A stretch of DNA of 63,052 bases, filler included, from Chiloscyllium plagiosum (taxonomy: Eukaryota): assembly GCF_004010195.1 (NCBI RefSeq). It is 10 parts of 9 records of this genome, joined end to end, with 100 filler letters (N's around TTAATTAATTAA, not from the genome) between each part and the next. Parts side by side here need not be neighbours in the genome. Positions count along the whole stretch, not along the records: positions 52,594 to 59,668 come from NC_057718.1; 9 more parts are not named here. One strand, written 5' to 3'. The notes under the pieces were generated by a model that did not search any database, was not told the origin of the DNA, and was given only the letters and a program-made list of their open reading frames with translations. The position numbers were made by a program, and so were the translations under genes. Shown here piece by piece: positions 2,347 through 61,784 of this stretch; position 1 is the stretch's first letter; each line of letters opens with the position of its first letter.

Positions 2347-2788
2347 GTGAGCAGTGAGATTAAACCACAAAGGATCCCATGTGTAATCCGGATCCAGTTC
2401 CATCAATGACAGGCTTTGATTGGAAATGAACCAACACCGTTAGGAGCATTAATGATGCATCTGAAGGCAGGATAGCTAAGTAGCTGATTCAGAAAAAGAT
2501 GGACCAAAGGATATTGTATTCTGATTAAGTCAGATAAGGTGGGAAGAAGCCTGGGTTGTGACGCCACCATCAGCAATGTCCTCGTTGTGGGCTGGAAACA
2601 TGGAGACAACTTTCACATTAAACTTTCTGTTTTTTTACTGAACAGAATGTGTACCATACTGCTCCTTTCAAAAAACGAAAGTGAATAAATCCCAAATTAA
2701 ACATGGCGCATTTTAATATTTAGCGAAATTGTGATATCGGTTCAGGATTTGTTTTGGTTGATTTATATTTGTCTCAAATATTCTGCAG

Positions 2789-3180
2789 TGATTAATCCGC
2801 TGGAGCCATCAGTGTCGGTCCTCCTGCCACCAACAGAAGAAATCTCCGCTCAGAGGTTTCTCTCCCTCACCTGTTTAGTGAGAGGTTTCTCCCCCCGAGA
2901 GATCTTCATCAAGTGGACAAACAATGACAAGCCGGTGAATCCCAGTAACTACAAGAACACCGAGGTGATAGCGGAGAGCGACAACACTTCCTTCTTCATC
3001 TACAGCCTGTTATCCATTACAGCGGAGGAGTGGGCCAGCGGTGCTTCTTACTCCTGTGTGATGGGACATGAAGCGATTCCATTGAAAATCATCAACAGAA
3101 CAGTCGATAAATCCAGCGGTAAACCGAGTTTTGTAAACATTTCACTTGCACTGATGGACACAGTTAATTCATGTCAATAA
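2789..3180 (+). CDS. IGHM: IgM heavy chain CH4 exon plus secretory tailpiece
   Basis: Acceptor TTCTGCAG|[17 protein letters not shown]...[18 protein letters not shown]...[23 protein letters not shown], then tail [20 protein letters not shown] with an NIS sequon and penultimate Cys. Internal G|GTAAA donor for the membrane form at 3118/3119. Confidence 0.95.
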
Positions 3181-3541: not shown

Positions 3542-3641
3542 NNNNNNNNNNNNNNNNNNNNNNNNNNNNNNNNNNNNNNNNNNNNTTAATTAATTAANNN
3601 NNNNNNNNNNNNNNNNNNNNNNNNNNNNNNNNNNNNNNNNN
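3542..3641. other. Artificial contig linker (first of nine)
   Basis: N44-TTAATTAATTAA-N44, with stops in all six frames. Identical linkers at 29887-29986, 34728-34827, 37503-37602, 39403-39502, 50651-50750, 52494-52593, 59669-59768 and 61685-61784. Plain N gaps at about 32693-33046, 40135-40634 and 57158-57794. Confidence 0.97.
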
Positions 3642-29282: not shown

Positions 29283-29611
29283 CTACACACATTCTGATCT
29301 CCTGATGCTCTTGCTGAGGGGAGAGGGGAGGGTCACGTGGGTGAGGGCACAGAAGAAGCGAGCGTTGGACTCCCAGTCAGACCCAGAGAGGGTCAGCAGG
29401 CTGCTGACACTGTAGGTGCTGTCCGAAGCTCGAAGGTAGTTGCTGGTCTGAACCCCGTCCGAAATGACTGCACCGCCCTTCTTCCACTGCACCTCCAGCT
29501 CATCGGGATAGAAGTGATTGGCAAGGCACACCAGGGTGGCAGTGCCCTTGGCATTGACCTGCTCCGGGGAGGGGGGCAGCAGGGTCAGCTTGGGCTCAGA
29601 GTTCTCATGGC
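29283..29611 (-). CDS. IGKC: Ig light chain constant exon, kappa (type III/NS4-like), intact
   Basis: Acceptor TCTTTCAG|GC. HENSEPKLTLLPPSPEQVNAKGTATLVCLANHFYPDELEVQWKK...YSVSSLLTLSGSDWESNARFFCALTHVTLPSPLSKSIRRSECV*. AATAAA at 28755-28750. Confidence 0.92.
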
Positions 29612-29986
29612 CTGAAAGACAAGAGAAACAATTTTAATCCCTGCCATTCAAAGGGATTTCAACTCTGAACATTCACTGGCAAAACAATCCATTTGAACAT
29701 TTGTAGTCAATACCTAACAAACCCGACAAAAGAACAGACATTGTTTAAATTGCTTCTTGGGATGTGAGTGTCACTGGCAGAGCCAGCAATTAGTGCCCAT
29801 CCCTAATTGCGCCTGAGAAGGTGATGGTGAAAGAGAAGGGACAGTTTTGGACCATCATTTAGGGAATGAATGTGGGCAGCTGGAAGNNNNNNNNNNNNNN
29901 NNNNNNNNNNNNNNNNNNNNNNNNNNNNNNTTAATTAATTAANNNNNNNNNNNNNNNNNNNNNNNNNNNNNNNNNNNNNNNNNNNN

Positions 29987-33607: not shown

Positions 33608-33936
33608 CTACACGCACTCTGATCTCCTGATGCTCTTGCTTAGGGGAGAGGGGAGGGTCACGTGGGTGAGGGCACAGGAGAAGCGAGCGTTGGACTCCCA
33701 GTCAGACCCAGAGAGGGTCAGCAGGCTGCTGACACTGTAGGTGCTGTCCGAAGCTCACAGGTAGTTGCTAGTCTGAACCCCGTCCGAAATGACTGCACCG
33801 TCCTTCTTCCACTGTACCTCCAGCTCATCGGGATAGAAGTGATTGGCAAGGCACACCAGGGTGGCAGTGCCCTTGGCATTGACCTGCTCCGGGGAGGGGG
33901 GCAGCAGGGTCAGTTTGGGCTGAGAGTTGTCACGGC
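33608..33936 (-). pseudogene. IGKC: Kappa light-chain C exon with a premature stop
   Basis: Same 329-nt exon as 29283-29611, but CGA is replaced by TGA at 33757-33755 (SNYL*ASD). Confidence 0.9.
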
Positions 33937-35332
33937 CTGAAAGACAAGAGAAACAATTTTAATCTCTGCCATTCAAAGGGATTTCAACTCTTCGAACATT
34001 AACTGGCAAAACAATCCATTTGAACATTTGTAGTCAATACCTAACAAACCCCATAAAAGAACAGGGCCTTTTAAAATTGCTTCTTGGGATGTGAGTGTCA
34101 CTGGCAGGACCAGCATTTATTACCCATCCCTAATTGCGCCTGAGAAGGTGATCGTGACGCAGCAGAGAGAGAAGGGACAGTTTTAGATCATCGTTTATAG
34201 GATGAATGTGGGCAGCTGGAAGGGCTATCAATGGGGGAGCATTTCAGTGACAGTGATCAGAACTCAGTGAGATTGAGAATAGGGAAGGAAATGGAGAACC
34301 ATAGAGCCTGTGTAAAAGTTTTCATTTGGAAATGAACCATTTTACTAAATTGTGCGGTGATTTGGTAAAAATGGACTGGAAACAGCGACTGGACGGGAAC
34401 TCAGTGTCAGGGCAGTGGGAGGCCTCGAAGAACGAGACAGAGATTGTTCAGAATCTGTTCCCACAAAGAGTAAGGGTGGGGATGTACAAATCTAGGCTCT
34501 CAGTCCGGAATGTGTCAAAGCAGGCAGAGTAGGGCAGACCAAACAGGGAAGGTGATGTTGGTTATCTGGTGTTCAATCCTGCAGAAAGCTGAGAGGAGGA
34601 TAGAAAATGCAGGAGTTTAAATGAACAAGAGGAAGGCAAAGAGCTGACAGGATGAAATGGAATAATAGAATTTATAGTACAGAAGGAGGCTATTCCATCA
34701 TGTCTGTGCTGGCTCTAGAAAGAGCTGNNNNNNNNNNNNNNNNNNNNNNNNNNNNNNNNNNNNNNNNNNNNTTAATTAATTAANNNNNNNNNNNNNNNNN
34801 NNNNNNNNNNNNNNNNNNNNNNNNNNNAATGCAATATAGCACCGCAAGAAAATTTTATGACCTGCTTGTCATCAACAAAATTAACAAAATAAATGAAAAA
34901 ATATAATCAGGGTAAGAACATATATTCACGAAGTGAATAATGACATTTTGGCATATTTTAATCATGTTTAGTAATATCTCGAACATCTTTGAATTCTTAG
35001 CGTTTGTTGTTGATAATAAAACTCACAGTCAGGGTGTCACTGACATTAAACATTATTTATAGCTGACTGATTAAGAGACATTAGGTGTTTCAAGTAACCC
35101 AGCCACACAGAAAGACCATCTGATCAAAAAAAGAGATACACCGAGTAACTGACTCCATCATCCCCATTGTAACTATTTGCTGAGCCTTAACTGAAGTCCG
35201 TAATCAGTCTGAACAAAAATCAATCTGAACCAAACCAAACTCAGCACAGAATCTGAGTTTCATTTAATTCAGAAATTAGTCACATGAATAGAAAGTTTTT
35301 AAAAAGTCACTAAGAAAGTTCAAGGGTCTGAC

Positions 35333-35380
35333 CTGAAGTCACTGTCACCATGGTCCCTTGGCCCCAGTAATCAAGATAGT
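35333..35380 (-). CDS. IGHJ: JH segment
   Basis: YLDYWGQGTMVTVTS with the WGxG motif and donor G|GTCAG. Heptamer CACAGTG abuts at 35381-35387; its spacer and nonamer are abnormal. Confidence 0.93.
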
Positions 35381-35723
35381 CACAGTGTTACATTCAGACA
35401 CGTTCTGTCAAATACTATTACAGACTGTAAACTGTAAAATGCAGAGAATTTCTTCACTTCCTAGAAAGCAGTGATTCAGACTCCTCTAAAAATGATTCAG
35501 TGTTATTTCAGCTTTTCAGAGTAACACATGAGCTGATTCTCAAAATCCCCAACTGGGGTATCGATAATTACCCAACACTTTCACAAATTAAATAGTGATA
35601 CTGGCATTAAACCGCACAGAACTAATACTGCAGTGCAAGTTAAGACGGTTTGTCGAAGTAATCACTGACTAGTTTCAAACAATGGAGGCTGAGTAGGTTT
35701 TTGTATTGGTCATAATTGCAGTG

Positions 35724-35738
35724 TCACTCCAGCTATAT
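35724..35738 (-). other. DH2 segment ATATAGCTGGAGTGA with flanking RSS
   Basis: J-facing RSS is CACTGCA-12-ACAAAAACC (35723-35696). V-facing heptamer CACTGTG is at 35739-35745, with its presumed nonamer displaced by an insertion. Confidence 0.85.
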
Positions 35739-36131
35739 CACTGTGAGACACGTTGTGTGTGTCTTCGATCTTCAGGTTCGTTGTGTCAAATACTATGACA
35801 GACTGTAAACTGTAAAATGCAGAGAATTTCTTCACTTCCTAGAAAGCAGTGATCAGACTCCTCTAAAAATGATTCAGTGTGTTATTCCAGCTTTTACGAT
35901 CCATTGTATTTTGAAAGTTTGGAATACTTTTCCAGGTTTGGTCTGCATTGAACTTGACAATCAACACGAAGAAGGTAGAAAAATTATACATTTGTACAAA
36001 CTAGCATACTGGATTGCGTTTAAATTGCATCTCACATTATTTCTCGCTCCTGCCATGGTAGAAATCACCAATTTGAGATAAACACTTGTCAGTGGTTTTT
36101 GTATGAGGATGTCGCTGTGCACAACGCTGTG

Positions 36132-36145
36132 ACCCACTGTAGTAT
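36132..36145 (-). other. DH1 segment ATACTACAGTGGGT with 12/22 RSS
   Basis: D2-facing RSS is CACAGCG-22-ACAAAAACC (36131-36094). V-facing RSS is CACAATG-12-ACACTCATT (36146-36173). Fits the shark V23-12D22-12D12-23J layout. Confidence 0.88.
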
Positions 36146-36533
36146 CACAATGATGTAGACAAGTACACTCATTCTCTGTTCTTTACTCGAGGTCTCAATT
36201 TTCATTTGAAAGAGCCATTTAGTACTGATCATGTTTAGAATTAATGCCATAGTTGACATAACAATTAGCAGTGATTTCCTGAGCTGTCAGATATATTAAA
36301 ACTAACATTTTGTCAGAGCATTTAATTGATGGAAGTGTTAGCAGTACATATGACATGCCCAAAACATTGTCCCATTGTGTCAGCAGTTTGCTAGTTTAAA
36401 TGGTACATTTCCTCTTTGATAGTTTTGTAAGAGGCAGCCTGAGGTCTGCTTCAGATCGCAGTTGGTTTAATTGCATATAAAACTCTTACTGACCGTCAGT
36501 TTATGATGGAATTGACAAAATGTTCCCTCGAGC

Positions 36534-36572
36534 TGTTTTTGAACGGGTCCAGCCCTGGTTCCTCTCGGTGTG
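36534..36572 (-). promoter_or_regulatory. VH 23-RSS
   Basis: CACACCG, 23-nt spacer, TCAAAAACA, directly after YYCAG(D). Confidence 0.85.
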
Positions 36573-36877
36573 GTCTCCTGCACAGTAATAGATGGCGGTG
36601 TCTTCGATCTTCAGGTTCTCCATGTCCAACGCGAAAATGTTGTTTGAAGTGTCTTTGGACGCAGTAAATCGACCCTTAATCGCTGGTGCATAGTTACTGC
36701 TGGATGAACTATAGTAGTACAGCAGCCACTCCAGACCCTGTCCGGGAACCTGTCGGACCCAGTACATGTCGTAGCTGCCAAGATCGAACCCGCTGGTTTT
36801 ACAGGTCAGTTTCAGGCTGCCTGCGGGACGGCCAGTCTCTGCCTCTGGCTGGGTCAAAACAACCTCCGATTGGACAC
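36573..36877 (-). CDS. IGHV: Unrearranged IgM-type VH exon, open frame
   Basis: Acceptor TTTTAAAG|[102 protein letters not shown]. Confidence 0.95.
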
Positions 36878-37004
36878 CTTTAAAAAGAAAACAAATAAAC
36901 CATGAGCATTAATGTTGGTGAATTGATGGCTGAGTCTTTTACATTCCTGCCGTAGACTAACATTGAGACAGTCACAAAGAGAGACTTGAACAAAAAACAC
37001 TCAC

Positions 37005-37195: not shown

Positions 37196-38831
37196 TGGAG
37201 GCTGAGACTGGATCCTGGTATCAGCTTGGACAGCCCGAACACATGGGATCATGTCTTTACATGAGGTTCTGCTTAAACATGGACACATACGCATCTTGGG
37301 ATATTTATTTTGCTGAATAGCTTCTTTGGAAGTAAATTTGAGTAGCTTCAGGTCTGTTTCACATGATAGTTGCATGTATTTTGTTTAAAAAAACAACAAA
37401 TTCAACTGGAAGTTAGCTCCCTTTATTCCTACATTCATTCACAAGCAGATAAAACTAAAATCAAAGTTGAAACATATTACTAGCTAATAAAACAGTTGAG
37501 CTNNNNNNNNNNNNNNNNNNNNNNNNNNNNNNNNNNNNNNNNNNNNTTAATTAATTAANNNNNNNNNNNNNNNNNNNNNNNNNNNNNNNNNNNNNNNNNN
37601 NNGCTGTATTGTTCTATGTTCTATGTTCTATAAATATGTGTCTTTAGGTGAGAGCCAGTATATGTGTCATTACGTGTGTATTTGCGATCATCTCTCTGTA
37701 TCTGCTCTGATACCAGACTGCAATTTTTATTATTCTAATTTATTGTTCTAATTTTACTGGATTGCCCATAATTCGATTTGACCTTGGTGTTGTAGGAAAC
37801 ATTTCCAAACGTCGTGGAGAGACAAGTGTTTTATGAGCAACTCTTCTGTTGCAGTGATAGAACTTCCATCTCTGAGAGAAAAGGCGTGAGTTCAAATCCC
37901 CACTGATAACATTTCTGAATATGTTTATTATAAAATGTCTACTTGTATTCTGTATGTGAAACAAAATGATATCAGGTATTTGAATACCAGAATTGATCGC
38001 AGTATGGAATTCAAACTGGGACGATGCAAACACCAGTTTTGGATTGTGGGAATCAATGTTAATCATTTGTTAACAGAGCCAAGCGTGTCCAACATGCTTC
38101 AAAGGTATTATTTTTCATGGAAATGTTAAATTTTTGGACAGTAAGCAAGAAGCGGACTGTTCCTGTTAGTAACTGGGTTACATTACAGAGGACATCTACC
38201 ATGAAAACTCTGCACAGGGAGCAAGAGGACAGACCATTCATAGTTCCCCTCCCCTCTGCTCCACGACAAATTATCTGTTGATTGTCTTTGGTGTGAAAGT
38301 GAAGATACATTCTGTCAACTCATGCGCTAGCGCAAGATCCCAGAAACAAAGGTTACATTCAAACTGTTCTGCACTATTTACGATTGGTATGTTCCAATCG
38401 AATTTAATTTTAAAGTGTCTTAAATTTACATTTCCAATTGGTGCAATGTGGCAGTTTAAAACTGACATGAATTTTGTAAGAATGCCCAATCGGGGGAATC
38501 AAGAACACTAAGTTCAAAACTCGTGCTCTACCCTTGACATAAAATGGACTTTGTCAGATTTTGTTAAGAGGGATTTAGGATGGATAAGGTACTTGGCGGA
38601 ATCCTGCAATGAGAGAACTTTAGTCTGTCTCTGACCCAGGGTGTATCTGAGCAGAGAACATTAACTGCACAAGACACTCGTCCTAGATCTGTTAATAATC
38701 CACTTTAACTACACAGATGGAATGTAAGTCAGAGTGGGAAACAACTAATTCAGTATTTAACTCACAACTGAAGGGGAAAGAAACGCTTCATTGCTTCTGT
38801 TGAATTATTAAATGCAACTTTGAGATTTTTA

Positions 38832-39220
38832 TTAACATGAATTAACAATGTCCATCAGTGCAAGTGAAATGTTTACGAAACTCGGTTTACCGCTGGATTT
38901 ATCGACTGTTCTGTTGATGATCTTCAATGGAATCGCTTCAGGTCCCACCACACAGGAGTAAGAAGCACCGCTGGCCCACTCCTCCGCTGTAATGGATAAC
39001 AGGCTGTACATGAAGAAGGAGATCTTGTCACTCTCCGCCATCACCTCGGTGTTCTTGTAGTTACTGGGATTCACCGGCTTGTCATTGTTTGTCCACTTGA
39101 AGAAGATCTCTCGGGGGAAGAAACCTCTCACTAAACAAGTGAGGGAGAGACACCTCTGAGCGGAGATTTCTTCTGTTGGTGGCAGGAGGACCGACACTGA
39201 TGGCTCCAGCGGATTAATCA
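38832..39220 (-). CDS. IGHM: IgM CH4 plus secretory tail, divergent paralog (possible pseudogene)
   Basis: Paralog of 2789-3180 with F>C (QRCLSL), S>F (GFFP), H>P (CVVGPEA) and terminal Q>stop (ends NSC*). Confidence 0.85.
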
Positions 39221-41853
39221 CTGCAGAATATTTGAGACAAATATAAATCAACCAAAAACATCCTGAATCAATATCACAATTTCACTAAATATTAAAATAG
39301 CAATGTTCAATTTGGGATTTATTCACTTTTGTTTTCTAAAGGAGCAGTATGGTATACATTCTGTTCATTAAAAAAAATAAAGTTTAATGTGAAAGTTGCC
39401 TCNNNNNNNNNNNNNNNNNNNNNNNNNNNNNNNNNNNNNNNNNNNNTTAATTAATTAANNNNNNNNNNNNNNNNNNNNNNNNNNNNNNNNNNNNNNNNNN
39501 NNGGTAAATGTAGGGGTATGGGTGGGTTGCGCTTCGGCGGTGCGGTGTGGACTTGTTGGGCCGAAGGGCCTGTTTCCACACTGTAAGTAATCTAATATTA
39601 AAAAAAAACAGATTCATTTCGACCGCAACCTAATCCTCTGGCTCCATTCCAATAATAATACTTAATGGGCATTACTGTTTCCCATATTATTCTTTTATGA
39701 ACGAGCCTGTGTCGTCTTAAAATATTTTCCTTTATTTTGACTGCTATTATTTTCTCATGGTCCCTTTTGCTCTTCTCATGGTCTGTTTGATGTCGAGAGC
39801 CCGCTACATTCTTGGTCCCACACAGTGGCTTCCTGGGAAATGTCCTCCCTGTGCTTTTCCTATTTCTTTCTTAAATGTGTCACACTGCTATGATTTAGAT
39901 TTACCACTAAGTTCCAGTCCACTCTGGTCCAATCATTACCTGATCTTATTAACATTGTCCTTCCCCCTTCAGAACTTTGGGCCAATTTCTATCTCTTTCC
40001 AGAACAATCTGGAATCCAACAGATTTATGATCACTGTCTGCACTGTCCATTAATGTTTTACCCACTGGGTCGACTTCATTCCCTAAAGTTAAGTCCAGGT
40101 TCACCCCTTTCTTGCAAGGTCTGGATTAAAATTCNNNNNNNNNNNNNNNNNNNNNNNNNNNNNNNNNNNNNNNNNNNNNNNNNNNNNNNNNNNNNNNNNN
40201 NNNNNNNNNNNNNNNNNNNNNNNNNNNNNNNNNNNNNNNNNNNNNNNNNNNNNNNNNNNNNNNNNNNNNNNNNNNNNNNNNNNNNNNNNNNNNNNNNNNN
40301 NNNNNNNNNNNNNNNNNNNNNNNNNNNNNNNNNNNNNNNNNNNNNNNNNNNNNNNNNNNNNNNNNNNNNNNNNNNNNNNNNNNNNNNNNNNNNNNNNNNN
40401 NNNNNNNNNNNNNNNNNNNNNNNNNNNNNNNNNNNNNNNNNNNNNNNNNNNNNNNNNNNNNNNNNNNNNNNNNNNNNNNNNNNNNNNNNNNNNNNNNNNN
40501 NNNNNNNNNNNNNNNNNNNNNNNNNNNNNNNNNNNNNNNNNNNNNNNNNNNNNNNNNNNNNNNNNNNNNNNNNNNNNNNNNNNNNNNNNNNNNNNNNNNN
40601 NNNNNNNNNNNNNNNNNNNNNNNNNNNNNNNNNNCATTTTTTAATTTCTTCATCGAGCAGGGGAGAACAAAAACAAACAAAAGCGTCTTAAATTAATCTA
40701 CAAACGCGATGGAAATGTCACTAATTTTATGGATATCCACTACTCACTGTGTAAACATCGTCACCCCAAACCAGGCGAAATCAGTCTATCTCGAGTTCCT
40801 CGTTCATTCATCCCTATTGTAGCATTCCCATCAGAATTTATTCTCCTGCCTCATCCACTAATTACAGGGAGCATCTTAAAGAAGCTCAGTGAGATCACGT
40901 TTATCCCAGTTCATCAAATGTGATCACCACTTTGTCTGTGGTCTGATCCAATAAGTTAAAGAGCTCAGTACCCGAGAAAAATCGATGTCCTACAATGTAC
41001 AAGGTCAACAGGTCATTCCCGAGCAGGGAATTAAGCATTGAATCCATTTTGATTTATTTTCAAGTATGGGTCACTGCATATTTTAACCACGTCATTTTGA
41101 GACCACAGCATCATAAGATAGAGGATCAGAATAAGGCTGTTCGGCCAATCCAGAGTTTAGATCAGAATGATGCTGGAAAAGCACAGCAGGTCAGGCAGCA
41201 TCCGACGAGCAGGAAAATCGAGGTTTCGGGCTAAAACCATTCTCCTGCTTTCTCCCCGTACTAAACAAGAGCCGATCTATCTCTGGCTTGAATGCACACA
41301 ATCGCCTGGCCTCCACAGCCGGCAGCAGCAATAGGTTCCACAGACTCATCACCCTCTGGCTGAAGAAATTCCTCCCCATCTCAGTTCTAAACGGTGCCCC
41401 CTTGACCCTGAGACTGTGCTCTTATTTCCTAGTCTTGCCGACCAGTCAAAACACCTATTCCACGTTCACTCGATCTCAGTTTCTCAGTATTTTCTATGTT
41501 TCAATCAGATATCTATCCAATATCCCCCTTCACCCCCAAACTTATCCTTGAAGCGGCTACCAGGCAAGGATTCAGCACTCTGAATGCCTCTCCCAGCATG
41601 GTCAGGCAACAAACTATTTAACAAAGCTCACTGTCTACATATCTATCTTCAACAGAGAGGAAACATGCTTTTCTGACTTGCCAAAATCAGAATTATGAGC
41701 AATGCTAATGTAACACTCAAACTGAAATGAGATACGTGACATGTTGGGAAACGAGAAGCTGTACCATGCTGTTACTACGCCTGATAAATTAGTGTGTTTG
41801 AGTCACATCAGAGTTCAGAATGATTTGTAGCTCTCTCAGTCTGTGTCTCTTAC

Positions 41854-42141
41854 CCTGGAGTGCGGTGATATTTTTACTTTGAGTGTTCTCTCCATGAGTG
41901 ACCTGGCAGGTATAGACCGCACTGTTGTACCATTCACCATAAGGGACCATCAGCCGACTCGTCACCGAGAAGTTCCCGTTCGCCTCACACACGGGAGACG
42001 TGAAGAAGCCAGAATCCAAGGGTCGGCCATTTTTCAACCAACTCACGGAGATTGACTTCGGATGGAACTCGATGATTGAACAGACGACAGTATCAGAAGG
42101 GAGATAGCAACGTTGGATGGTATTCGTTTTAATGACAGAGT
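41854..42141 (-). CDS. IGHM: IgM CH2 exon with an aberrant N-terminus
   Basis: Acceptor TTCATCAG|AC and donor G|GTAAG give 288 nt in frame. [22 protein letters not shown]...[21 protein letters not shown]. The downstream intron aligns with 72-1290. Confidence 0.85.
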
Positions 42142-42659
42142 CTGATGAACAAGGCAGACGAATTACTGGCATAAATGAAGAAATGATGCCGTTGCTATCA
42201 CTGAGACATATTGAGAGCCGGGCAGGAGTGGCTATTCAATATTCCAGGATTTAGTGCCTTCAGGCGAGACAGGGAAAGATGGAAAATGATGGGGGCGGGG
42301 GTGTGCGGTACAGAATGTTGCTTCTGTCGCAATTCTGACAAGAGTATTTTAGGCTGTAAAGAGAAATGAAATCATGGATACCTCCTTGAACAAAGGCAAA
42401 TGGACAGTACTTCAAAACCAAAACACAGCAAACATAACTATTGGGAGAGCACGATAGACCTTACTATAGGTCCAAAATACCAACTGCAAATACATGGGCA
42501 AATTTCAGAGACGTGTAAATTAAATAGGGAATGAGAAAAGAGGTTTTTAACTTCCTCAGCATAGGCTTGGATATTCATTTTGTCAAAAATTTAGAGGGAG
42601 CACAATTCTGAAAATGCCCCCAGGAGAATATTTTAACAAAGTATGTGTTTAGTAGTGAG

Positions 42660-44820: not shown

Positions 44821-44906
44821 GGTGATTCTACGAAAACGGTTATAAATAATGCCTTATTAATGTTAATCCCAGATGCTCTGTTTATCTCAGTTCCCACAAC
44901 ACGTAC

Positions 44907-45212
44907 CTGGACATGGCATTTCTTTGCTCTTGTGTGACCCGCTGTGTTGAATCTCATAGTAGATTTTGCTGGGGCAACCTACCGCTGACTCGGGCAGGGT
45001 TAACTGGCTGTTCAGGGTGTAGGTTCCCTTCTTGTTTCTCACTGATGGGTAAGTCTTCAATCCAGTCTTGATTAGCTCCCCACCTTTCTTCCAGGTTACC
45101 TTTGTGACGTCAGGTGAATAGTCCATCGCCAAACAACCAAAGATCACAGAACCGGTGCTGTGCTCCTGACAGGAGGAGACCAGGCCATAAAGCATGGGTA
45201 GCGATGGTGTCT
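44907..45212 (-). CDS. IGHM: IgM CH1 exon lacking the second canonical Cys
   Basis: Acceptor TTGTAG|AG and donor G|[48 protein letters not shown]...[20 protein letters not shown]...[20 protein letters not shown]. Confidence 0.88.
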
Positions 45213-46704
45213 CTACAATAGAATGACCAATTGAGCATGTTAATTTCTGTTAATTTGACCTTATCAGTTATGCAAATGTATCCTCAGCTGTAAACGTTTG
45301 CCAGTATGCTCCCGCTGAGTCTACAGCATAACTGGAGTTTGTTTTTGTTTCCTACCAGTTGCTGATCATGATCATTGGTTCCCTCTTTAGAAACATGCCC
45401 TCGACCTTGACCATTGCCATATAATTTCGGAAAAAGAACATCCTGATCCCACCCCAGTAAGTGTTTGAAGATCTCACCAACTGACACTTTCACTGGATTG
45501 CTGTGAAGAGCAGTGAAGTTTCACAAAATACACCAAGGAAATGAAGATACATCGAAATTCTACAGTTTGTGCAAACAGGCCATTTGGCCCAACAAGTCCA
45601 CACCCACCCTCTGAAAAGTAACGCATCCAGACCCATTCCTCTGTCCTATTATGCTACAGTTAACCCTGACTAATGCACCTTATCTCCCAATCACTGAACA
45701 CAACATTTGCAATTCCCCCAGCTTGCACATCTTTGGACTGTGGGAGGAAACGCACACAGACATGGGGAGAAAGTGCCAACTCCATACAGACAGTCACCCG
45801 AGGCTGGAATGGAACCAGAGTCCCTAGCACTGTGAGGCAGCAGCGCTAACCACGGAACCAGCGTGCTGCCCCATTAGGTACCGTGCTGCTGGAAATACCC
45901 AACAGCTGGCAGTAACCCCGGAGAGAAATCAGAGTGAATCATAGAACATAGAACATTACAGCGCAGTACAGACCCTTCGGCCCTCGATGTTGCGCTGCCC
46001 TGTCATACTAATCTGAAGCCCATCCCACCTACACTATTCCATGTACATCCATATGCCTGTCCTATGACGACTTAAATGTACTTAAACTTGGTGAATCTAC
46101 TACCGTTGCAGGCAAAGCATTCAATACCCTTACTACTCAATGAGTAAAGAAACTGCCTCTGACATCTGTCTTATACCTATCTCCCCTCACTTTAAAGTTG
46201 TGTCCCCCCGTGTTTGCCGTCCCCATACTTGGAGATCAGGCCCAGTGAGCCTTCCTCACTTATCAATGCAAGGCAGAATGTTCTCTCTGGGAGCAAGGTC
46301 ACTGCCGCAGCAGGACAGGCAGGAGCTGAGCACTGGGACTAGGAGGATAACTGTCACGGCTGAATTCATGCCAATTGTCTGGAAGTTGAAACATCTAATT
46401 AACAATTATCTGAATTCTGGAGGCCTCTGAGAAATGGAGGACCATTAAGGTTCAGAGACTTTGGAGTATTACAGCTGAGTATTTACGTAAATATGAATTG
46501 AGAAATGAACAAGTAATCTTTAACTTTAATAACGATCAAACTGACACGCAGTTCACCACCAAACCTCATCTTTCAGACTAACCACTGCACTTACTCTGTC
46601 TAGACCTAAATTTCCACTCACATTGACAAACCCTACCCTGCTATACATCCATTCATGCCCGGAACACACAACCCCTATCACACGAAACACATCCAAGGCA
46701 ATCC

Positions 46705-50300: not shown

Positions 50301-50955
50301 TTGACTCCTGTTGGAAAAAGAATTCTTAGCAGAGGTTCTGGATGGTCTGAGATAGCAATTGAAGACCAACTGAAAAGCTGCTGCAAGTGTTGGATTCAGC
50401 GGAACTCCCACCGTACTGAACAATCAAATTCAGCTACAGCACTGGTTTAATATAAAGTAAAACAGCCGAAGCATAATCTCATCAAATATGCTGCGAAAAT
50501 GATCTATTCTGGATTAGTTATAAATGATATTGCTAGAACAGCAAGTCAAAAGCTGGGATTTCTTTGAGCACTTACTCCATTAACACCATCTAGCGATGCC
50601 CAAAAGCTTGTGAACAAATATTGATCTGGAAAAAGCTGCTAACCACCAAANNNNNNNNNNNNNNNNNNNNNNNNNNNNNNNNNNNNNNNNNNNNTTAATT
50701 AATTAANNNNNNNNNNNNNNNNNNNNNNNNNNNNNNNNNNNNNNNNNNNNGGGATGTTGTTTTGGGGGGTGGGTTAGGGGCTGGGAGAGCGGACATGGTG
50801 ACCCAGACGGGATCACTGATGGGGAATATTCCTCCTGGAGCGACCCTCTCCATCAAGTTGGTGGAGGGGAGGGGTGGAGTTGGCGCTATTTCGTGATAAC
50901 TACCTTCACTTCTTGGGGAGTGCTGTTTGAATGGGATCTTCCTGTGCCACTGCAG

Positions 50956-51294
50956 CCCAGCTTTGGAAGCAGCCCTCTGTCCAGGCGCTGGTGATAGAGA
51001 CGGAGGATGAGGACGAGGAGGGAGAGCTCCCTGGCAGAGGGAACACTACACTGGCCTGCTTCGTGTCTGGCTTCTACCCGGGAGATGTCTACCTGAGCTG
51101 GAGGAGCCAGGGCCGGGAGCTCTCTGAGGGAGTGACTACTTTCCCAGTAACACCAGACCCTCATGGGACCTTCCACACAGTCAGCCAGCTCTCTGTGCCA
51201 TCACGAGACTGGCACAGTGGGTATAACTTCACCTGCCTGGTGGGGCACCAGACCCTGGAATGGCTGAAGGAGACTCAGCTCCGGAAGGATTCAG
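50956..51294 (+). CDS. C1-set Ig-superfamily domain exon of an unidentified membrane protein
   Basis: Phase-1 acceptor TGCAG|CC and donor G|GTATAG. PSV...TLACFVSGFYPGDVYLSW...GVTTFP...GTFHTVSQLSVPSRDWHSGYNFTCLVGH. Confidence 0.88.
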
Positions 51295-52245
51295 GTATAG
51301 TGGCATCGTGGCCAGAGGCAAATCCCCAGGGAGGGACAGTGTCAGTGCTGTCTCTCCCACTCCCCCACTCACTGTCCCACTTCCTTACTCACTCACTCAC
51401 TTACTTCCTCCCTCATTCACTGACTCCCTCCCTCACTCCCTCATCCCTTCACCCACTCCCTCACTCCCTCACTCACTCATCACCACACGAGGAAGGTCAT
51501 GAGGGAGGGATTGGCTGCGATTGTGTAGATGCTCAGTTAGACCCCAGACGGATCCTGGGAGTGGATTTGACGGGGAATGGAATGTAAAATCCAGGAGATT
51601 TTACCAAAACTGCACGAGTCAGACTCCAGCTGGAATACCGTGAATACTCGGGGCTCTGTATCCAAGCAGGGATGGACCAGCCATCGTGGGCAGTCCAGAG
51701 AAGGTTCACTTGGCCGATCCCAGGGATGCAGGGATTGTCTGATGAGGGAGAGGGCGGGTCAGTTGGGATCTGGCTTTGTCAGGAATTTAGATGAACCAGA
51801 GACGACCAGATTGAAACAGACAAGATTCAACAAGGAAAGATGGATTCCCCGCTCCACCCACCGCCCACCTGCCGTGTGGCAGAATCTGCGATCCAGAGTG
51901 TGGGGGGGGGGGGGGGGGGTCACCCCATTATTAAAGAGGGAGATGGGGGTGAAACCCCTTCACCCTCCAGGGGGAACGGGGAGTGAATCTGTGGGATTCT
52001 TTATCGCAGAGACTGGGGCATTGAGGGTATTCAAGGCTGAGACAGAGAGGGAGCAGGAGGGGGATTGAAGGGGAAAGGGCAGGAGGGTGCGACATTGAGG
52101 GTATTCAAGGCTGAGACAGAGAGAGAGGGGTTTTAGAGGGAGGAAGGGGGCGAGGAGGAAGGGCAGGAGGCAGGGAGTTGAGGTAACTCACGTTGTGAAC
52201 CTTCCTGACCCTGTTTCCCCCCCCCCCCCCTCTGTCTGTCTGCAG

Positions 52246-52377
52246 GCTGGATTGAGATCCTCCGGAAGTCTCCATGGCTCTGGGGCTCTATCATCGTCAG
52301 CCTGATCATTCTCTGCATTGCTTTAGCCACTCTCACCGGTCTGCACTGTGGCAGGAGGGGCTGCAGGAAGAGGAAAG
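52246..52377 (+). CDS. Transmembrane exon following the C1 domain
   Basis: Polypyrimidine tract then TGCAG|GC. In frame with the C1 exon: GWIEILRKSPWLWGSIIVSLIILCIALATLTGLHCGRRGCRKRK. Donor G|GTAGGT. Confidence 0.8.
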
Positions 52378-52764
52378 GTAGGTTCCCTCAGGACAGAGAG
52401 ACAGCAGCGAGAGGAACGGGAACAGGAGCACAGGCCGGAAACTGGGAGCCTGCTCTATCACTCACTCATACTCACTCTCACACTCACTCTCACNNNNNNN
52501 NNNNNNNNNNNNNNNNNNNNNNNNNNNNNNNNNNNNNTTAATTAATTAANNNNNNNNNNNNNNNNNNNNNNNNNNNNNNNNNNNNNNNNNNNNGCCCCGC
52601 ACCGCCTTCCTGTCCTGCAGTCTTCTTCTTGACCTCTCTGCCTCCATCCTACTCCGACCTATCACCCTCACCTTGACCTCTTTCCACCTATCACATTTCC
52701 AACGCCCCTCCTCCAAGTCCCTCCTCCCTACCTTTTATCTTCTCCTGCTGGACACTCTCTGCTC

Positions 52765-52800
52765 ATTCCTGAAGAAGGGCCTGTGCCCGAAACGTCGAAT
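52765..52800 (+). ncRNA. Minimal hammerhead ribozyme in a Penelope 3' terminal repeat (about 52594-52895)
   Basis: ATTC-CTGAAGA-A-GGGCctgtGCCC-GAAA-C-GTC-GAAT. A degenerate sibling lies at 57903-57938. Confidence 0.75.
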
Positions 52801-54074
52801 CTCCTGTTCCTTGGATGCTGCCTGACCTGCTGTGCTGTCCCAGCAATAAAGTTTCAACTTTGATCTCCAGCATCTGCAGACCTCACTTTCTCCCCTAATC
52901 ATTCCTTGCCTTTCTAAATCCTCTGATTCAGAATCCCTTCCAATAACTTGTTCATCACCGATGTCAGGCTGACTGATCTATAATTCTCTGGTTTTTCCTT
53001 ACCTCCTTTCTTAAATAGTGGCACCATGTTAGCTAAACTCCAGGCTTCCAGTGCTTCACCTGTGCCTATCGATGGTTCACATATCTCAGCAATGCGTCCA
53101 GCAATCACTTTCCTAGCTTCCCACAGAGTTCTGGGTACATTTGATCAGGTCCCAGGGATTTGTCCACCTTTTTGCATCCAACAGCTCCTCACTGTTTATT
53201 TCTCCACATTCTTGAGCTTCCATTTGCTACTCCACAGTAAAAACTGAGGTGAAATACTCATTTAGTGTTTCACCCATCTTCTGCTGTTCCACAAATAAAT
53301 GGCCTTGTTGATCTTTAAGGGGCCTTATTGTCTCCCTAGTTTCACTTTTGCCTTTACTGTTATTATATAGTCTCTGGTTTCTCCTTAACCCCATTTGCCA
53401 AAGTTATCTCATGTCTCTTGTTTGCATTCCTGATTTCCCTCTTGAGGGTACTCCTACTGCTCTTAGACATCTCAAGGGATTAACTTGATCCTTACACTCT
53501 ATACCTGTCATATACCTCTTTCTTTTTCTTGACCAGAGCTTCAATTTCTCTAGTCACCCTGCATTTCCAACATCTACCAGCCTTGCCCTATGGTCTTTGG
53601 ACTTATGCTACCTCATTTTTGAAGGCCTCCCACTTTCCAAACCCTCCTTTACCTGTGAATAGCCTCTCAGAGTCAACTTTTGAATGCTCTTGCCTAATAC
53701 CATCAAAATCTACCTTCCTCCAATTTAAAACTTTAACTTTTAGATCAGGTTGATCCTTTTCTATTACTATTTTAAAACTAATAGAATTATGAGCACTGAC
53801 CCCAAAGTGCTCCATCACTGACACCTCAGTCTCTTGTCCTGCCTTATTTCCCAATAGAAGGTGAAGTTTTGCTCCACATACTGAATAAAAAAGTTTTCTT
53901 GCACGCACTTAACAATTCCTCTCCATTAAAGTCCTGAGCTCTGTGGCAGTCCCAGTCTATGCTTGGAAAATTAAAATCCTCTATCATTACAACCCTATCA
54001 TTCTTACAGATAACTGAGATCTCCTTAAAAATTTGTTTCTCAATTTACCACTTTCTATTGTGAGGTCTGTAGTA

Positions 54075-54600
54075 CAGGATGTGGATGTAGGTTTGTTCAT
54101 TTTCAGATATTTCATCGCCATACTAGGTAACATCATTAGTGAGTCTCCAGATGAAGCACTGGTTGTATGGCCTGCATTTTATTTATGTGTTTAGGTTTCC
54201 TTGTGTTGGTGACATTGTTTCCTGTTGTGATGTCGTTTCCCATGGTGATGCCATTTCCTGTTTTTCTCAGGGGGTTGTAAATGTGATCCAAGTCAATGTG
54301 TTTGCTGATAGAGTTCTGGTTAGAATGCCATGATTCTAGGAACTCTCGTGGGCGTCTTTGTTTGGTTTGTCCTAGAATGGATATGTTGTCCCAGTCGAAG
54401 TGTTGTCCTTCCTCATCTGTATGTAAGGATACTAGTGAGAGTGGATCATGTCTTTTTGTGGCTAGTTGATGTTCATGTATCCTGGTGGCTAGTTTTCTGC
54501 CTGTTTGTCCAAAGTAGTGTTTGTTACAGTTCTTGCAAGGTATTTTGTAAATGACATTAGTTTTGTTTGTTGTCTGTATAGGGCCCTTCAAGTTCATTAG
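54075..54600 (-). mobile_element. Penelope-like element 3' part (GIY-YIG), inserted in a minus-strand CR1 (about 52900-54980)
   Basis: NVIYKIPCKNCNKHYFGQTGRKLATRIHEH...HFDW...REFLESWH. Confidence 0.88.
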
Positions 54601-55286
54601 TTACAGTTTTAAAACAGCTCCTCAGTTATGTATTCATCTGCTCTATCTTCCTATTCCTACTGTCATTAGCTCATGGCACCAGGAATAATGTAAATATTAC
54701 TATCTCGAGGACCTCCATTTTAATCTCCTGCCTATTTTTTCTGCATTCTCTCATCAGAATCTCATCCATTTCTCTTCCTATTTTGTTGATATCAATGTGA
54801 ACAACAACCTCTGGCAGTTACTCTCCCCTTTGAGAACATTCTGCAGCCTCCGTTGAGATATTCTCGATCCTGGTACGAGGCAGGCAATCCATCATTCTGA
54901 TGACTTGCTATCTTCCGCAGAAGCATCTGCCTGTGTCTCTGACTAAAGAGTACCCTATCACAGTCGATCGCTTGGAACCTGACTCCAAAATGATCCACTC
55001 GGTGCTTCCCCTTCCTCAGCTTGCTCCGTACCGAGCAACATTCCTGAGAAAGATCCACAAACAAGACATCCTTCAGATCAAGGTGATGGAGACTGTGGGA
55101 TAACACTCGCACATTGTCCTCTTGTGACAGAGGTCATTTGTCAAATGGCTGTCTTGGAGCTCCTACACTGAGAGTGGGCCTTGCTGAACAGGTTGAGAAC
55201 CAGCCAAAGTCCCTGAAGCGGCTAGATCCCTCCCTCAGAGGCCTTAGTCCAAAGCCCTACGTCACACACAGGTGGAGAGACACAGA

Positions 55287-55380
55287 CTACACTGCACCTT
55301 CCTGAGGAGTGTCCCTTTGACAGATGAACAGACTCATCACCACAATCACCCCCAGCAAATCAGGAGGGGATCACTGGGCT
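55287..55380 (-). pseudogene. Frameshifted transmembrane-like exon downstream of the VJ exon
   Basis: Acceptor ATCAAG|AG gives EPSDPLLI in frame with the V exon. The neighbouring frame reads LLGVIVVMSLFICQR. Confidence 0.5.
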
Positions 55381-55646
55381 CTTGATATTTTAATTTGGTG
55401 AATAATATATTGGGATATTTCGCCAACAATCACGAAATGAAGAAAAAGTGAAATATAGAACTACTGATTTAATTCATTTAAGACACTTTACAGCTCAAGT
55501 AGAAACATTGTTTTTGAGATTGTGGAAGACATTTTAAAACATAAATTAAAAATAAAAAGCAAATATTAGGATTGGATCCCCAAATTGCAGCCTGTCCATC
55601 ACCCACACAATCAGAGATCAGTTAGTATCATGTAAACAGGACTTAT

Positions 55647-55991
55647 CCATTAGAGTCAGTTGGGTTCCTGTCCCACTGATATCAATCCACACTTTACAGT
55701 AATAGACCCCAGTGTCTCTGGGCTGCGTGCTTGTGATGGTCAGAATGAAGCTGTTATTGGAGGGGTCTCTGGAAGACTGGAATTACACAGTGAACCCTGG
55801 ACTCCATTGTGTGATGTTCCTCACGTGATGTGTTAAAGCCCACTCCATTTTCTTCCCTGGTTGCTCCTGGTCCCAGTGAACATCGGTGTGTGTCACTGCA
55901 GCGTTCCTCATAGTGCACTGTAACCGGGTAGTGTGACCCTCAGTGACACGTTCCAGGCTTGGAGACTGGAGAAGGACTGGGGCATTTTCAA
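55647..55991 (-). pseudogene. Non-rearranging, germline-fused VJ-type V-set domain exon
   Basis: Acceptor TCTCTTAAAG|TT; 345 nt. ENAPVLLQSPSLERVTEGHTTRLQCTMRNAAVTHTDVHWDQEQPGKKMEWALTHHVRNITQWSPGFTV*FQSSRDPSNNSFILTITSTQPRDTGVYYCKVWIDISGTGTQLTLM. TAA at 55785-55783; donor mutated to G|ATAAGT. Confidence 0.88.
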
Positions 55992-58900
55992 CTTTAAGAG
56001 AAAATATGTGATTAAATTAAAACTAGTCTGAAAGCTGGTAAAATCTCAAATACTTAACAAAGGACATATCAGTTCATGCTATCTTGGGTAATATCTCGAC
56101 CTAGTGCGGATGATACTAAGGTTGATGGAGTTGTGGATAGTGACGAAGGATGTTTTAGACGACAGAAAGACATGGATAAGCTGTAGAGTTGGGCTGAGAG
56201 GTGGCAAATGGAGTTTAATGTGGAAAAGTGTGAGGTGATTCACTTTGAAAGGTGTACCAGGAATGCAGAGTACTGAACAAATGGTAAGATTCTTGGTAGT
56301 TTAGATGTGCAGAGAGATCTCTGTGTCCATGTACATAGATCCCTGAAAGTTGCCACCCAGGTTAATAGGGTTATTAAGATGGCATTTGGTGTGTTAGTTT
56401 TTATTAGTAGAGGGATTGAGTTTCAGAACCATGAGATCATGCTGCAGCTGTACAAACTTTAGTGCAGCCACATTTGGAGTATTGCGTCCAGTTCTGGTCA
56501 CCGCATTATAAAAAGGATGTGGAAACCTTGGAAAGGGTTCAGAGAAGATTTAGTAGGATGTTGCCTGGTATGGAGGGAAAATCTTATGAGGAAAGACTGA
56601 TGAACTTGAGGCTGTTTTCACGAGAGAGAAGAAGGTTGAGAGTTGGCTTAATTGAGACATACACTATAATCAGAGGCTTAGATAAGTTGGACAATGGGAA
56701 CTTTTTTCCTTGCATGCTGATGGTTAGCAAGAGTGGACATAGCTTTAAATTGGGTGATTGATGTAGGACAGATGTCAGAAGTAGTTTCTTTACTCAGAGA
56801 ATAGTAGGGGTAAGAAATGCCCTGCCTGCAACAGTAGTAGACTCGTCAACTTGAAGGGCATTTAAATGATCATTGAATAGGTAAATGGACATCAACTAGC
56901 CACAAAAAGAATGAAATAGTAGAGGTAAAAAGTCTGTTTGGAGGTGGTGGAAATTTGGATAATTTGGTTTATGCGGATGATTTGGTTTATGCGAAGGTTG
57001 GTAGGGTGGAAGGTGAGCACCAGGGGCGTTCTGTCCTTGTTGCGGTTGGAGGGGTGGGGTCTGAGGGCGGAGGTACAGGATGTAGACGAGATGCGTTGGA
57101 GGGCATCTTTAACCACGTGGGAAGAGAAATTGCGGTCTCTAAAGAAAGTGGCTATCTNNNNNNNNNNNNNNNNNNNNNNNNNNNNNNNNNNNNNNNNNNN
57201 NNNNNNNNNNNNNNNNNNNNNNNNNNNNNNNNNNNNNNNNNNNNNNNNNNNNNNNNNNNNNNNNNNNNNNNNNNNNNNNNNNNNNNNNNNNNNNNNNNNN
57301 NNNNNNNNNNNNNNNNNNNNNNNNNNNNNNNNNNNNNNNNNNNNNNNNNNNNNNNNNNNNNNNNNNNNNNNNNNNNNNNNNNNNNNNNNNNNNNNNNNNN
57401 NNNNNNNNNNNNNNNNNNNNNNNNNNNNNNNNNNNNNNNNNNNNNNNNNNNNNNNNNNNNNNNNNNNNNNNNNNNNNNNNNNNNNNNNNNNNNNNNNNNN
57501 NNNNNNNNNNNNNNNNNNNNNNNNNNNNNNNNNNNNNNNNNNNNNNNNNNNNNNNNNNNNNNNNNNNNNNNNNNNNNNNNNNNNNNNNNNNNNNNNNNNN
57601 NNNNNNNNNNNNNNNNNNNNNNNNNNNNNNNNNNNNNNNNNNNNNNNNNNNNNNNNNNNNNNNNNNNNNNNNNNNNNNNNNNNNNNNNNNNNNNNNNNNN
57701 NNNNNNNNNNNNNNNNNNNNNNNNNNNNNNNNNNNNNNNNNNNNNNNNNNNNNNNNNNNNNNNNNNNNNNNNNNNNNNNNNNNNNNNNNNNNNNCTATCA
57801 CCTTCATCCCCTCCCCCACTCACCTATTGTACTCTATGCTACTTTCTCCCCATCCCCACCCTCCTCTAGCTTATCTCTCCACGCTTCAGGCTCCCTGCCT
57901 TTATTCCTGATGAAGTGTTTTTGCCCGAAACGTCGATTTCACTGCTCCTTGGATGCTGCCTGAATTGCTGTGCTCTTCCAGCACCACTAATCCAGAATCT
58001 GGTTTCCAGCATCTGCAGCCATTGTTTTTACCACAGCAATGTTTGTGCTTTCTCTGAGAACATGAGAATCTGGGAATGGGGATTGTGTTATTCACGAGTC
58101 TAAAAGGTACTATTATGTACAGCTGCTTCAGAAATGGAAGGGGCTCCTATTATACATAAACATGACCATCTTCAGGCACGGCAATATCTGGGCTAACAAT
58201 AGTGATTGGGTGACAGAGAGCAGGATTATTTCTCATGCTTCATATGATCTGTTGCAAGATAGAGTCGGAGACTTTTGTACTCTCAGGTCATAGGGTGTGA
58301 TGCAGTGATGATGCTATCAGCATGTAGAATAACAGATTCAATCAGTACAGGAGAGGCCTTTCAGCCCATCAAGTGGTCCCATCAAACACTCCATTGAACC
58401 TACTCTAGTCCCAATTGCCATTACTATGCTCACAGCCTTGAATGTTGTGACATTTCAGTTGCTCCTGCAAGGACATTTCAAAGGTTGTGAGATTTCCAGC
58501 CTCAGCTCTCTTCCCAGGCAGTACATTTCAGATTGTCACCATCCTTTGTGTGAAAAGACCTTTCCCCTCTCAACCTCCTGCCTTTTATAGAATTATCGAG
58601 TCATACAGCATGGAAATAGAATCTTCAGTCCAATTCGACCACATTTCCCAAATTAAACTGGTTCCATTTGCCGGGCATTTGGCCTGTATCCAATGAAACC
58701 TTTCCAATTCATTGACCTGTTCAGGTGTCTTTTGAATGTTGTAACTGTACCTGTATCTATCATGTTCTCTGTCAGTTCAGATACGAATCAGTCTCTGTGA
58801 AAAAATTGCTCCCCAGGTCCCTTTTAAATCTTTCTCTTCTCACTTTAAAAATCTGTGCTCTAGTTTTGAATTTGCCTTCCGTAGGGAAATGGCTGTTGCT

Positions 58901-59980
58901 ATTCCTCTTATCTCTGCCACTTCTAATCTTCTGCACTGCACTCAGATTCCCAAACCCCATGACCTTCTCTGCTCCAAAAAAAACAGCCCAAGCTTATCTA
59001 GCCTCTCTTCATCACTGAAATGCTCCATCCCAGGCAACATCCTGTTGAATCTCCTCTGTACCCTCTCAATTTCAATTACATCCTTCCTATTGTGTGGTGA
59101 CCAGAACTACACACAGTTCTCCAGCTGTGGCCTGACTAATGTCCTGTATAGCCCCAACATCACCTCCCTGCTCTTACAGTTTATGCCTTGACTGATAAAG
59201 GCAAGTATCCCATTTGCCTTCGTATCAACCCTTTTACCCTGTCCTGCCACCTTCAGGGATCTCTGGATAAGCTCTCCAAGCTCCCTCTGTCCCTCTGAGC
59301 TTCCTCGTGTCCTGTCATTCATTGAGTCCTCCATGTCTCAGACAGATGACCTGACACACTGACTGTGAGACTGAGAACAACAACCAATGAAGTGGAATTA
59401 AAAACCCAACCTAATGGTGACAATTGAAACCTGGTCAATGGTCATCAATAACTTCCCAGTTAATGAACACATCTGTCAGAGAGGGAAACCTGTTGGTTAT
59501 AACTTTGAGTGCGAGCAGCAGCTAAGGTAAGACTGTTTGTTTTAAAATTACTTACCGGTAGTGGGCAGCGGTGTTTTTTTTTCTCTCTTTTACAGAAAGA
59601 GCGGGAGCAGCAGGGGGAAGTGACGAAGACCGGAGGGGCAGCCGGGTAGGTTTTTTCCTATAAAAGCGNNNNNNNNNNNNNNNNNNNNNNNNNNNNNNNN
59701 NNNNNNNNNNNNTTAATTAATTAANNNNNNNNNNNNNNNNNNNNNNNNNNNNNNNNNNNNNNNNNNNNGGAGCTTGAGGAAATCACTTGTGGAGATTTTC
59801 TTAATAACATGAGAATCTTGTCCCTTTAAGCAGTGATAAAAACCTTAAATTGGAGCTGGTGGCTGAGGGTGGCTGAGCAGGAAGGAGATCTGGTTTACTG
59901 AAGCAGAAACTTCTGAGGTTCACATTGTTTTGAACAGCTGACAATCTTTAGCAACTTGAAGAGATTTTACTTGACATCAC

Positions 59981-60796: not shown

Positions 60797-61127
60797 CTAC
60801 ACACATTCTGATCTCCTGATGCTCTTTTGCTGAGGGGAGAGGGGAAGGTTACGTGGGTGAGGGCACAGGAGAAGCGAGCGTTGGACTCCCAGTCAGACCC
60901 AGAGAGGGTCAGCAGGCTGCTGACACTGTAGGTGCTGTCCGAAGCTCGCAGGTAGTTGCTGGTCTAAACCCCGTCCGAAATGACTGCACCATCCTTCTTC
61001 CACTGCACCTCCAGCTCATTAGGATAGAAGTGATTGGCAAGGCACACCAGGGTGGCAGTGCCCTTGGCATTGACCTGCTCTGGGGAGGGGGGCAGCAGGG
61101 TCAGCATGGGCTGAGAGTTGTCACGGC
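60797..61127 (-). pseudogene. IGKC: Kappa light-chain C exon with a stop and a frameshift
   Basis: CAG is replaced by TAG at 60966-60964, and there is a 2-nt insertion near the 3' end (331 vs 329 nt). Confidence 0.9.
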
Positions 61128-61784
61128 CTGAAAGACAAGAAAATCAATTTTAATCCCTGCCAGTTTCAACTTTCAGAATATTCACTTGGAAAACATTTGA
61201 ACATTTGTAGCCAACAGCTAACAAACCTGACGAAAGAACAGACATTGTTTAAATTGCTTCTTGGGATATGAGTGTCACTGGCAGGGCCAGCATTTATTAC
61301 CCATACCTCATTGCCCCTGAGAAGGTGATGGTGAAAGAGAAGGGACAGTTTGGACCATAATTTAGGAAATGAATGTGGGCAGCTAGAAGGGTGATCAATG
61401 GGGAAGCATTTCAGTGACAGTGATCAGAACTCAGTGAGATTGAGAATAGGGATAGAAATGGAGAACAATGGAGCAAGTGTAAAAGTTTTCATTTGGGAGT
61501 GAAATATTTTACTAAACTGTGCGGTGCTTTGGTAAAAGTGAACTGGACCAACGACATGATGGGAAATCAGTGTCAGGGCAGTAGGATCCCTCAAAGGAGG
61601 AGAAAGAGATCGTTCAGAATCTGTTCCCACAATGAGTAAGGGTGGGGACTCCCAAATCTAGACTTTCAGCCTGGGATGTCAAAANNNNNNNNNNNNNNNN
61701 NNNNNNNNNNNNNNNNNNNNNNNNNNNNTTAATTAATTAANNNNNNNNNNNNNNNNNNNNNNNNNNNNNNNNNNNNNNNNNNNN

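Follow-up and report, generated by a model that had tools for sequence, protein, structure and literature searches.

A pseudogenised VJ exon of Chiloscyllium plagiosum, assigned by sequence to a multicopy family of predicted tandem-VJ receptors in cartilaginous fishes

Single-exon VJ genes serve to reconstruct the gene hit by the RAG transposon's invasion, and several receptor systems are available for comparison with a gene of this kind. PRARP has the architecture VJ-(C1)-TM-ITIM, NITR the architecture V-I and SIRP an ectodomain of the form V-C1-C1, and NKp30 (NCR3) is a single V domain with a charged TM and linkage to the MHC. CD28-family members have a single V, according to the available text of PMC11599192. 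UrIg and UrIg2 are non-rearranging single-exon VJ genes of sharks with 3-11 C1 domains, and the V domain of UrIg2 is without a G-strand bulge and has extra Cys (both from the accessible portion of PMC12227049). The NITR genes of teleosts and holosteans form a clustered multigene, single-exon VJ family with inhibitory, activating and secreted forms, the activating ones carrying a charged TM, as stated in the accessible part of 10.1101/2021.06.11.448072. The MDIR of skate, which are CD300/pIgR-like, are multigene activating and inhibitory multi-V receptors, and V domains of the CD300 type are marked by two Cys pairs plus a WCR motif (excerpts of PMC3031540). Finally, the sigma-2 IgL (sigma-cart, NS5, type I) has a CDR1 of 8 and a CDR2 of 7 residues and is found as joined genes in coelacanth, gar and turtles (available sections of PMC5985310); germline-joined sigma-2 is also described in nurse shark in the portion of PMC4279169 at hand.

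The window analysed here is a stretch of 63,052 nt from Chiloscyllium plagiosum (RefSeq assembly GCF_004010195.1), consisting of ten parts of 1.3-26 kb split by nine identical 100-base linkers (44N-12nt-44N). The features that concern the VJ exon, and the linkers, are as follows.

52594..59668: part from NC_057718.1 that holds the exon (7,075 nt; N gap at 57158-57794; otherwise largely dispersed repeats)
55992..56010, minus strand: pyrimidine-rich splice acceptor with terminal AG, read from the sequence
55647..55991, minus strand: single-exon V+J domain, pseudogenised (345 nt, phase 1/1)
55783..55785, minus strand: in-frame TAA at codon 67 of P0001, the exon translation
55641..55646, minus strand: broken splice donor, AT replacing GT, read from the sequence
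55380..55298, minus strand: TM-like exon of the preliminary description, 266 nt downstream of the V exon; unsupported
3542-3641, 29887-29986, 34728-34827, 37503-37602, 39403-39502: linkers (a 12-base spacer with stops in all frames, flanked by 44 N on either side)
50651-50750, 52494-52593, 59669-59768, 61685-61784: linkers, continued

The preliminary description reported a phase-1/phase-1 exon with a complete V domain, and this is borne out on the minus strand from 55991 to 55647: the translation (with X at the stop) is a V-set domain (Pfam E=1.7e-15) with the B-strand Cys, the C-strand Trp, DTGVYYC and a J-like GTGTQL strand. The CDR3-equivalent had been given as about 5 residues and has to be corrected, as the loop between the Cys and the GxG, KVWIDIS, spans 7. 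The exon is of the 'KVWGDIS' class, the type of an internal or membrane-proximal domain of the tandem-V family described below. Two of the lesions for which the copy was called dead stand, namely the TAA, at a position that is Arg in 99% of the 102 closest family domains, and the donor at 55646, which reads G|AT where G|GT is expected. Because the exon deviates at only 2 of 38 near-invariant family columns (the stop codon and a G>I change in the loop), its decay is probably recent. The absence of a junctional RSS also holds: a tolerant scan of 55500-56100 found none at the V-J junction, and the same scan recovered the 23-type RSS of the VH-D locus as a positive control. The sole weak heptamer in that interval, a heptamer-like CACTGTG at 55792 (minus strand) with a 13-nt spacer and 3 nonamer mismatches, lies inside FR3 next to the stop codon and away from the V-J seam, and is apparently a by-product of decay.

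As judged from its sequence, the exon belongs, as a pseudogenised member, to a multicopy family of non-rearranging VJ receptors that is present in sharks, rays and chimaeras. A search with the exon matched 78 of 160 longer candidates at 60-82% identity, all named ones being elasmobranch, and both of the short candidates (2/2). With a profile of 16 members there were 141 matches among 5,865 candidates, of which 120 were listed, and rays, skates and Callorhinchus were added; among the matches listed, the named sources amount to at least 23 species (13 sharks, 9 batoids and Callorhinchus). The family records carry inconsistent automatic names, some of them SIRP-like. The closest intact relatives of the exon come from carpet sharks, and it is 82% identical both to domain 3 of P0010 and to domain 2 of P0052; in the more careful of two trees (57 rows, 100 columns, LG+G4 without a mixture model) it groups with the latter at 100/88 within a family clade at 87/97. 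Both trees nest it in the family, and its identity to family domains runs from 65 to 82%. The earlier expectation of a multicopy family with intact paralogs elsewhere is upheld by intact predicted members in other sharks. That the family genes form a tandem cluster is suggested by neighbouring RefSeq accessions, by several genes lying on one large contig in each species and by the occurrence of multiple isoforms. The preliminary description suggested that the family may be poorly described, and no account of a cartilaginous-fish tandem-VJ family with ITIM or ITAM tails was found in the literature searched, which was available in part and took in portions of PMC10751288 and PMC6795676 among others; provisionally, the family is probably undescribed. 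The exon by itself adds little, being dead and isolated.

The architecture of the family was read from 138 predicted records, isoforms included, all intact members being gene models. The number of V domains is one in 14 records, two in 53, three in 41, four in 23, five in 4, six in 2 and nine in 1; two or more are present in 124 of the 138, with a maximum of nine. Adjoining domains are nearly always separated by 0-2 residues (first 80 proteins). Of 357 domains examined, 347 were scored, and 345 of these have 7 residues from Cys to GxG; the J-Phe position in the 347 is occupied by S in 122, Y in 105 and F in 65. In the alignment, family V domains show a single Cys pair and W-Y/H/D-R, along with a J-like strand. 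A TM was detected in 107 records, and the 31 without one may be partial. Since the last V is at most 19 aa from the TM in these 107 records, the family has no C1 domain. The TM is charged in 2 of the 107. Tails carry ITIM/ITSM in 59 of the 138 records and an ITAM-like YxxL-x6-8-YxxL motif in 29, while the remainder have other Tyr (9), a short tail (9), no Tyr (1) or no TM (31). The preliminary description had proposed that the number of V domains, the TM charge and the tail motifs of intact paralogs be checked; run on the predicted paralogs, the check gave one to nine V domains, mostly in tandem rather than a single V followed by a TM, along with uncharged TMs and ITIM/ITSM or ITAM-like tails. 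A structural model of P0078 shows a complete V fold of the antigen-receptor type with a helix after it, the best match being a VH (Z 18.8, rmsd 1.2 A, 111 aligned). Generic antibody V domains came up in a PDB sequence search with the exon and in fold searches, neither of which tells the families apart; the absence of NKp30, NITR and UrIg2 from these lists is uninformative. Likewise, ESM Atlas features gave generic V-set look-alikes without discrimination (CD7-, JAML-, CD226- and NCR3-like at 0.94-0.96, the NCR3-like cluster at 0.95).

Sigma-2 provides the best-scoring outside V domains, with a similar framework 3 and the same 13/58 spacing with an 8-residue CDR1 and 7-residue CDR2; in contrast, the predicted family proteins are membrane-bound with signalling tails, have up to 9 tandem V domains and no C domain, and their loop is fixed at 7 residues, their J-Phe mostly replaced and their V never RSS-split in the records examined. 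The spacing itself, found in the exon V and in 253 of 357 family domains, is not diagnostic, as it also occurs in VH and a TCRg-like row. NITR is likewise a clustered multigene family of single-exon VJ genes, but the present family has a charged TM in so few records, an ITAM-like motif in the tail itself and no I-type domain. With SIRP the family shares a tip domain of VJ type and a tail that has ITIM/ITSM in tandem (LYYADI ... TEYATI, which we take to resemble the SIRP tail), whereas its ectodomain contains only V domains. UrIg and UrIg2 are also single-exon and non-rearranging; unlike them, the family has a GxG bulge and tyrosine-motif tails and no C1, and with C1 domains absent from the family, identification of the exon as UrIg2 was rejected. 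MDIR/CD300 are multigene multi-V receptors of cartilaginous fish, from which the family is set apart, by description, by the single Cys pair, the W-Y/H/D-R and the J-like strand of its V domains. It differs from NKp30 in being multi-V with an uncharged TM. By analogy, the family would work as the NITR, SIRP and MDIR paired families do but departs from them in the defining features that were tested, because it has no C1, an uncharged TM and no second Cys pair.

The combination of an uncharged TM with ITIM/ITSM or ITAM-like tails in the predicted proteins makes it likely that family members are paired inhibitory and activating immune receptors. The tandem V domains would engage, as monomers, a ligand on a cell surface or of microbial origin, and binding would not vary clonally, given a loop of constant 7-residue length and a Ser or Tyr, in most cases, where the VH/VL interface has its J-Phe. 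This suggests that the V domains are monomeric, germline-fixed recognition units and not VH/VL-type pairs. From known ITIM and ITSM biology, members with these motifs would recruit SHP-1/2-type phosphatases; from known ITAM biology, those with YxxL-x6-8-YxxL would recruit Syk/ZAP70-type kinases directly, presumably dispensing with a DAP12 or FcRg adaptor because the TM is uncharged. Both forms are candidate NK and myeloid receptors of sharks, a set that is poorly known. The family would have evolved by exon shuffling and by birth and death, the exon copy being one death.

It is quite probable that the exon is the dead V+J exon of such a tandem-VJ family, whose predicted proteins likely act as paired receptors. 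One might instead regard it as an ordinary germline-joined pseudogene of sigma-2 or another IgL, since sigma-2 is the nearest named antigen-receptor V and germline-joined sigma-2 genes are known in sharks (available part of PMC4279169). This is scarcely credible: identity to sigma-2 is 39% on average and 43% at most, against 82% to family domains; the exon pairs with domain 2 of P0052 as described above; family members have no C domain; and no IgL C exon was seen in the 52594-59668 part. The identity and tree evidence already refute the reading as an ordinary IgL pseudogene, and the earlier view that this is not an IgL or TCR gene with a C exon is sustained. A different question is whether the copy was a single-V receptor of the V-TM type, with its TM exon 266 nt downstream, as the preliminary description proposed. 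Of the 102 closest domains, 49 are the last V before the TM or the end of their protein, and a few single-V models are known (P0077, P0078, P0079, P0081); another V precedes in 96 of the 102, however, leaving an N-terminal position in only 6. The best 19-residue stretch of the TM candidate, read with one frameshift, has a KD hydrophobicity of 2.38, which exceeds 97.6% of 372 random 100-nt windows (2.4% match it), yet chance alone would supply about 0.7 equally hydrophobic windows over the 3 kb downstream. Frameshift alignment of the candidate with 60 family post-J peptides, some of which are V starts and not TM regions, gave a top score of 34, and 12 shuffles against the top ten peptides gave maxima of 31-40, so that its likeness to family TM regions is not above chance; its acceptor is weak, being A-rich without a pyrimidine tract. 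The TM-like exon at 55298-55380 is thus probably a chance intronic match, and the single-V reading is improbable. Leader, second V and tail exons were searched for in the 52594-59668 part and none was found, the leader and tail searches giving weak short matches only (best E 0.003-0.03, 88 and 103 queries). Because no other exon was found and a 637-N gap lies upstream, the architecture of the copy to which the tandem-family exon belonged is unreadable.

The origin of the family bears on the logic by which single-exon VJ genes are used: with sigma-2 as nearest kin, the family could be one more relic from before RAG, or else an antibody exon that was reused in innate immunity. In a profile search of 1.84 billion representatives, rescored per domain, the best non-family domains among the top representatives are shark sigma-2-type IgL (95-128 bits; the P0178 cluster includes a record named Igsigma-2). 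Joined VJ-C chains rank second with 75-99 bits (coelacanth, caecilian, turtle and two sharks), and after a gap come lambda/sigma-like, VH, TCR-like and NITR-like domains, none of which exceeds 67 bits (NITR-like rows at most 47 per domain). Rows called lambda/sigma, kappa, VH, TCR or NITR-like are labelled by motif, and these labels are presumptive. The mean identity of 39% between the exon V and sigma-2 compares with 25-33% for the other groups. The family groups with sigma-2-type domains at 75/89 in the careful tree (inner node 66/59) and at SH-aLRT 92 in a quick tree of 94 rows, of which the careful tree omits 37, including two long NITR-like rows; one of these fell inside the family in the quick tree. 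V sequences of NKp30, PRARP, UrIg, SIRP and CD8 are absent under those names from the tree. By scores and identity, the nearest V domains outside the family are those of sigma-2 light chains, and not NITR-like, VH or TCR domains, with moderate tree support.

A tentative account is that a joined sigma-2-type light-chain VJ exon was captured before the chimaera-elasmobranch split; slightly more tentatively, the captured exon would then have lost its C domain, gone tandem and gained ITIM/ITSM or ITAM tails, giving rise to innate paired receptors. Rather less likely is that the family is a surviving, never-split VJ side branch that predates the RAG invasion, its sigma-2 likeness consisting of shared ancestral features. 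That account fits the presence of the family in sharks, rays and a chimaera, the absent RSS and the fixed loop, and single-exon VJ genes have been sought as pre-RAG relics (available portion of PMC12227049). AU tests reject none of seven alternative placements: p is 0.18 for the family, together with NITR-like, lying outside all antigen receptors, 0.38 for its grouping with TCRg-like, 0.14 with lambda/kappa-type and 0.07 with VH, 0.43 for sigma-2 monophyly without the family and 0.14-0.15 for all IgL together. However, the maximum-likelihood tree puts the family in among the V domains of sigma-2 type, an 'all rearranging V' split is seen in none of 1000 bootstraps, and per-domain scores are some 30-60 bits higher for sigma-2 than for all other groups. 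In addition, the family has no C1 domain, which the proposed precursor possesses (same portion of PMC12227049), and among the best 150 representatives no bony-vertebrate member was recognised, 20 of the 126 new ones being named. Because the nearest outside V domains are sigma-2, which is often germline-joined, a post-RAG origin is at least as likely as a pre-RAG one. If the capture of a sigma-2 exon is true, it amounts to recycling from adaptive to innate immunity, and a single-exon VJ structure alone is no proof of pre-RAG age.

Several other light-chain-like proteins came up in these trees. P0236, a joined VJ-C light-chain-like protein of the caecilian Microcaecilia, pairs at 100/95 with the sigma-2-type chain of a turtle, although amphibians are stated to have lost sigma-2 in the accessible text of PMC7916673. 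P0241 (bamboo shark) and P0216 (sevengill shark) are divergent joined VJ-C1 two-domain proteins that are sigma-2-related yet fall outside the shark sigma-2 clade.

The exon is flanked by transposon relics, a GIY-YIG-like ORF at 54136-54600 (minus strand), which we take to be Penelope, and a LINE-like repeat at 56105-56889 with several copies in the window by self-BLAST. Most of the ten parts of the window carry an Ig exon, and this suggests that the parts were assembled according to their content. Because the parts are joined by artificial linkers, gene order across the window holds no linkage information, and linkage of the VJ exon to IgM, IgL, VH or UrIg2 was rejected, as these pieces sit in other linker-separated parts; the VH mentioned in the preliminary description is likewise in a different part. 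This unrearranged VH (35340-36908, minus strand), which has a JH, a 23-type RSS and, at 36131, another RSS, served as the RSS control. Constant exons with a secretory tail, presumably of IgM type, lie in three parts at 1965-3180 (plus), 38832-39281 (minus), 41789-42235 (minus) and 44887-45249 (minus), and three copies of Ig light-chain C exons, all on the minus strand, lie in three parts at 29283-29633, about 33800-33925 and about 60985-61116. The family HMM gave no match to a V-like motif at +17240, which was rejected as a family member. A separate 1.7-kb part contains, within 50931-52493 (plus strand), a UrIg2 C3-type C1 exon with an acidic stretch that scores 166 bits to domain C3 of PDB 9dmx, and a probable TM exon follows about 1 kb after it, near 52240-52400.
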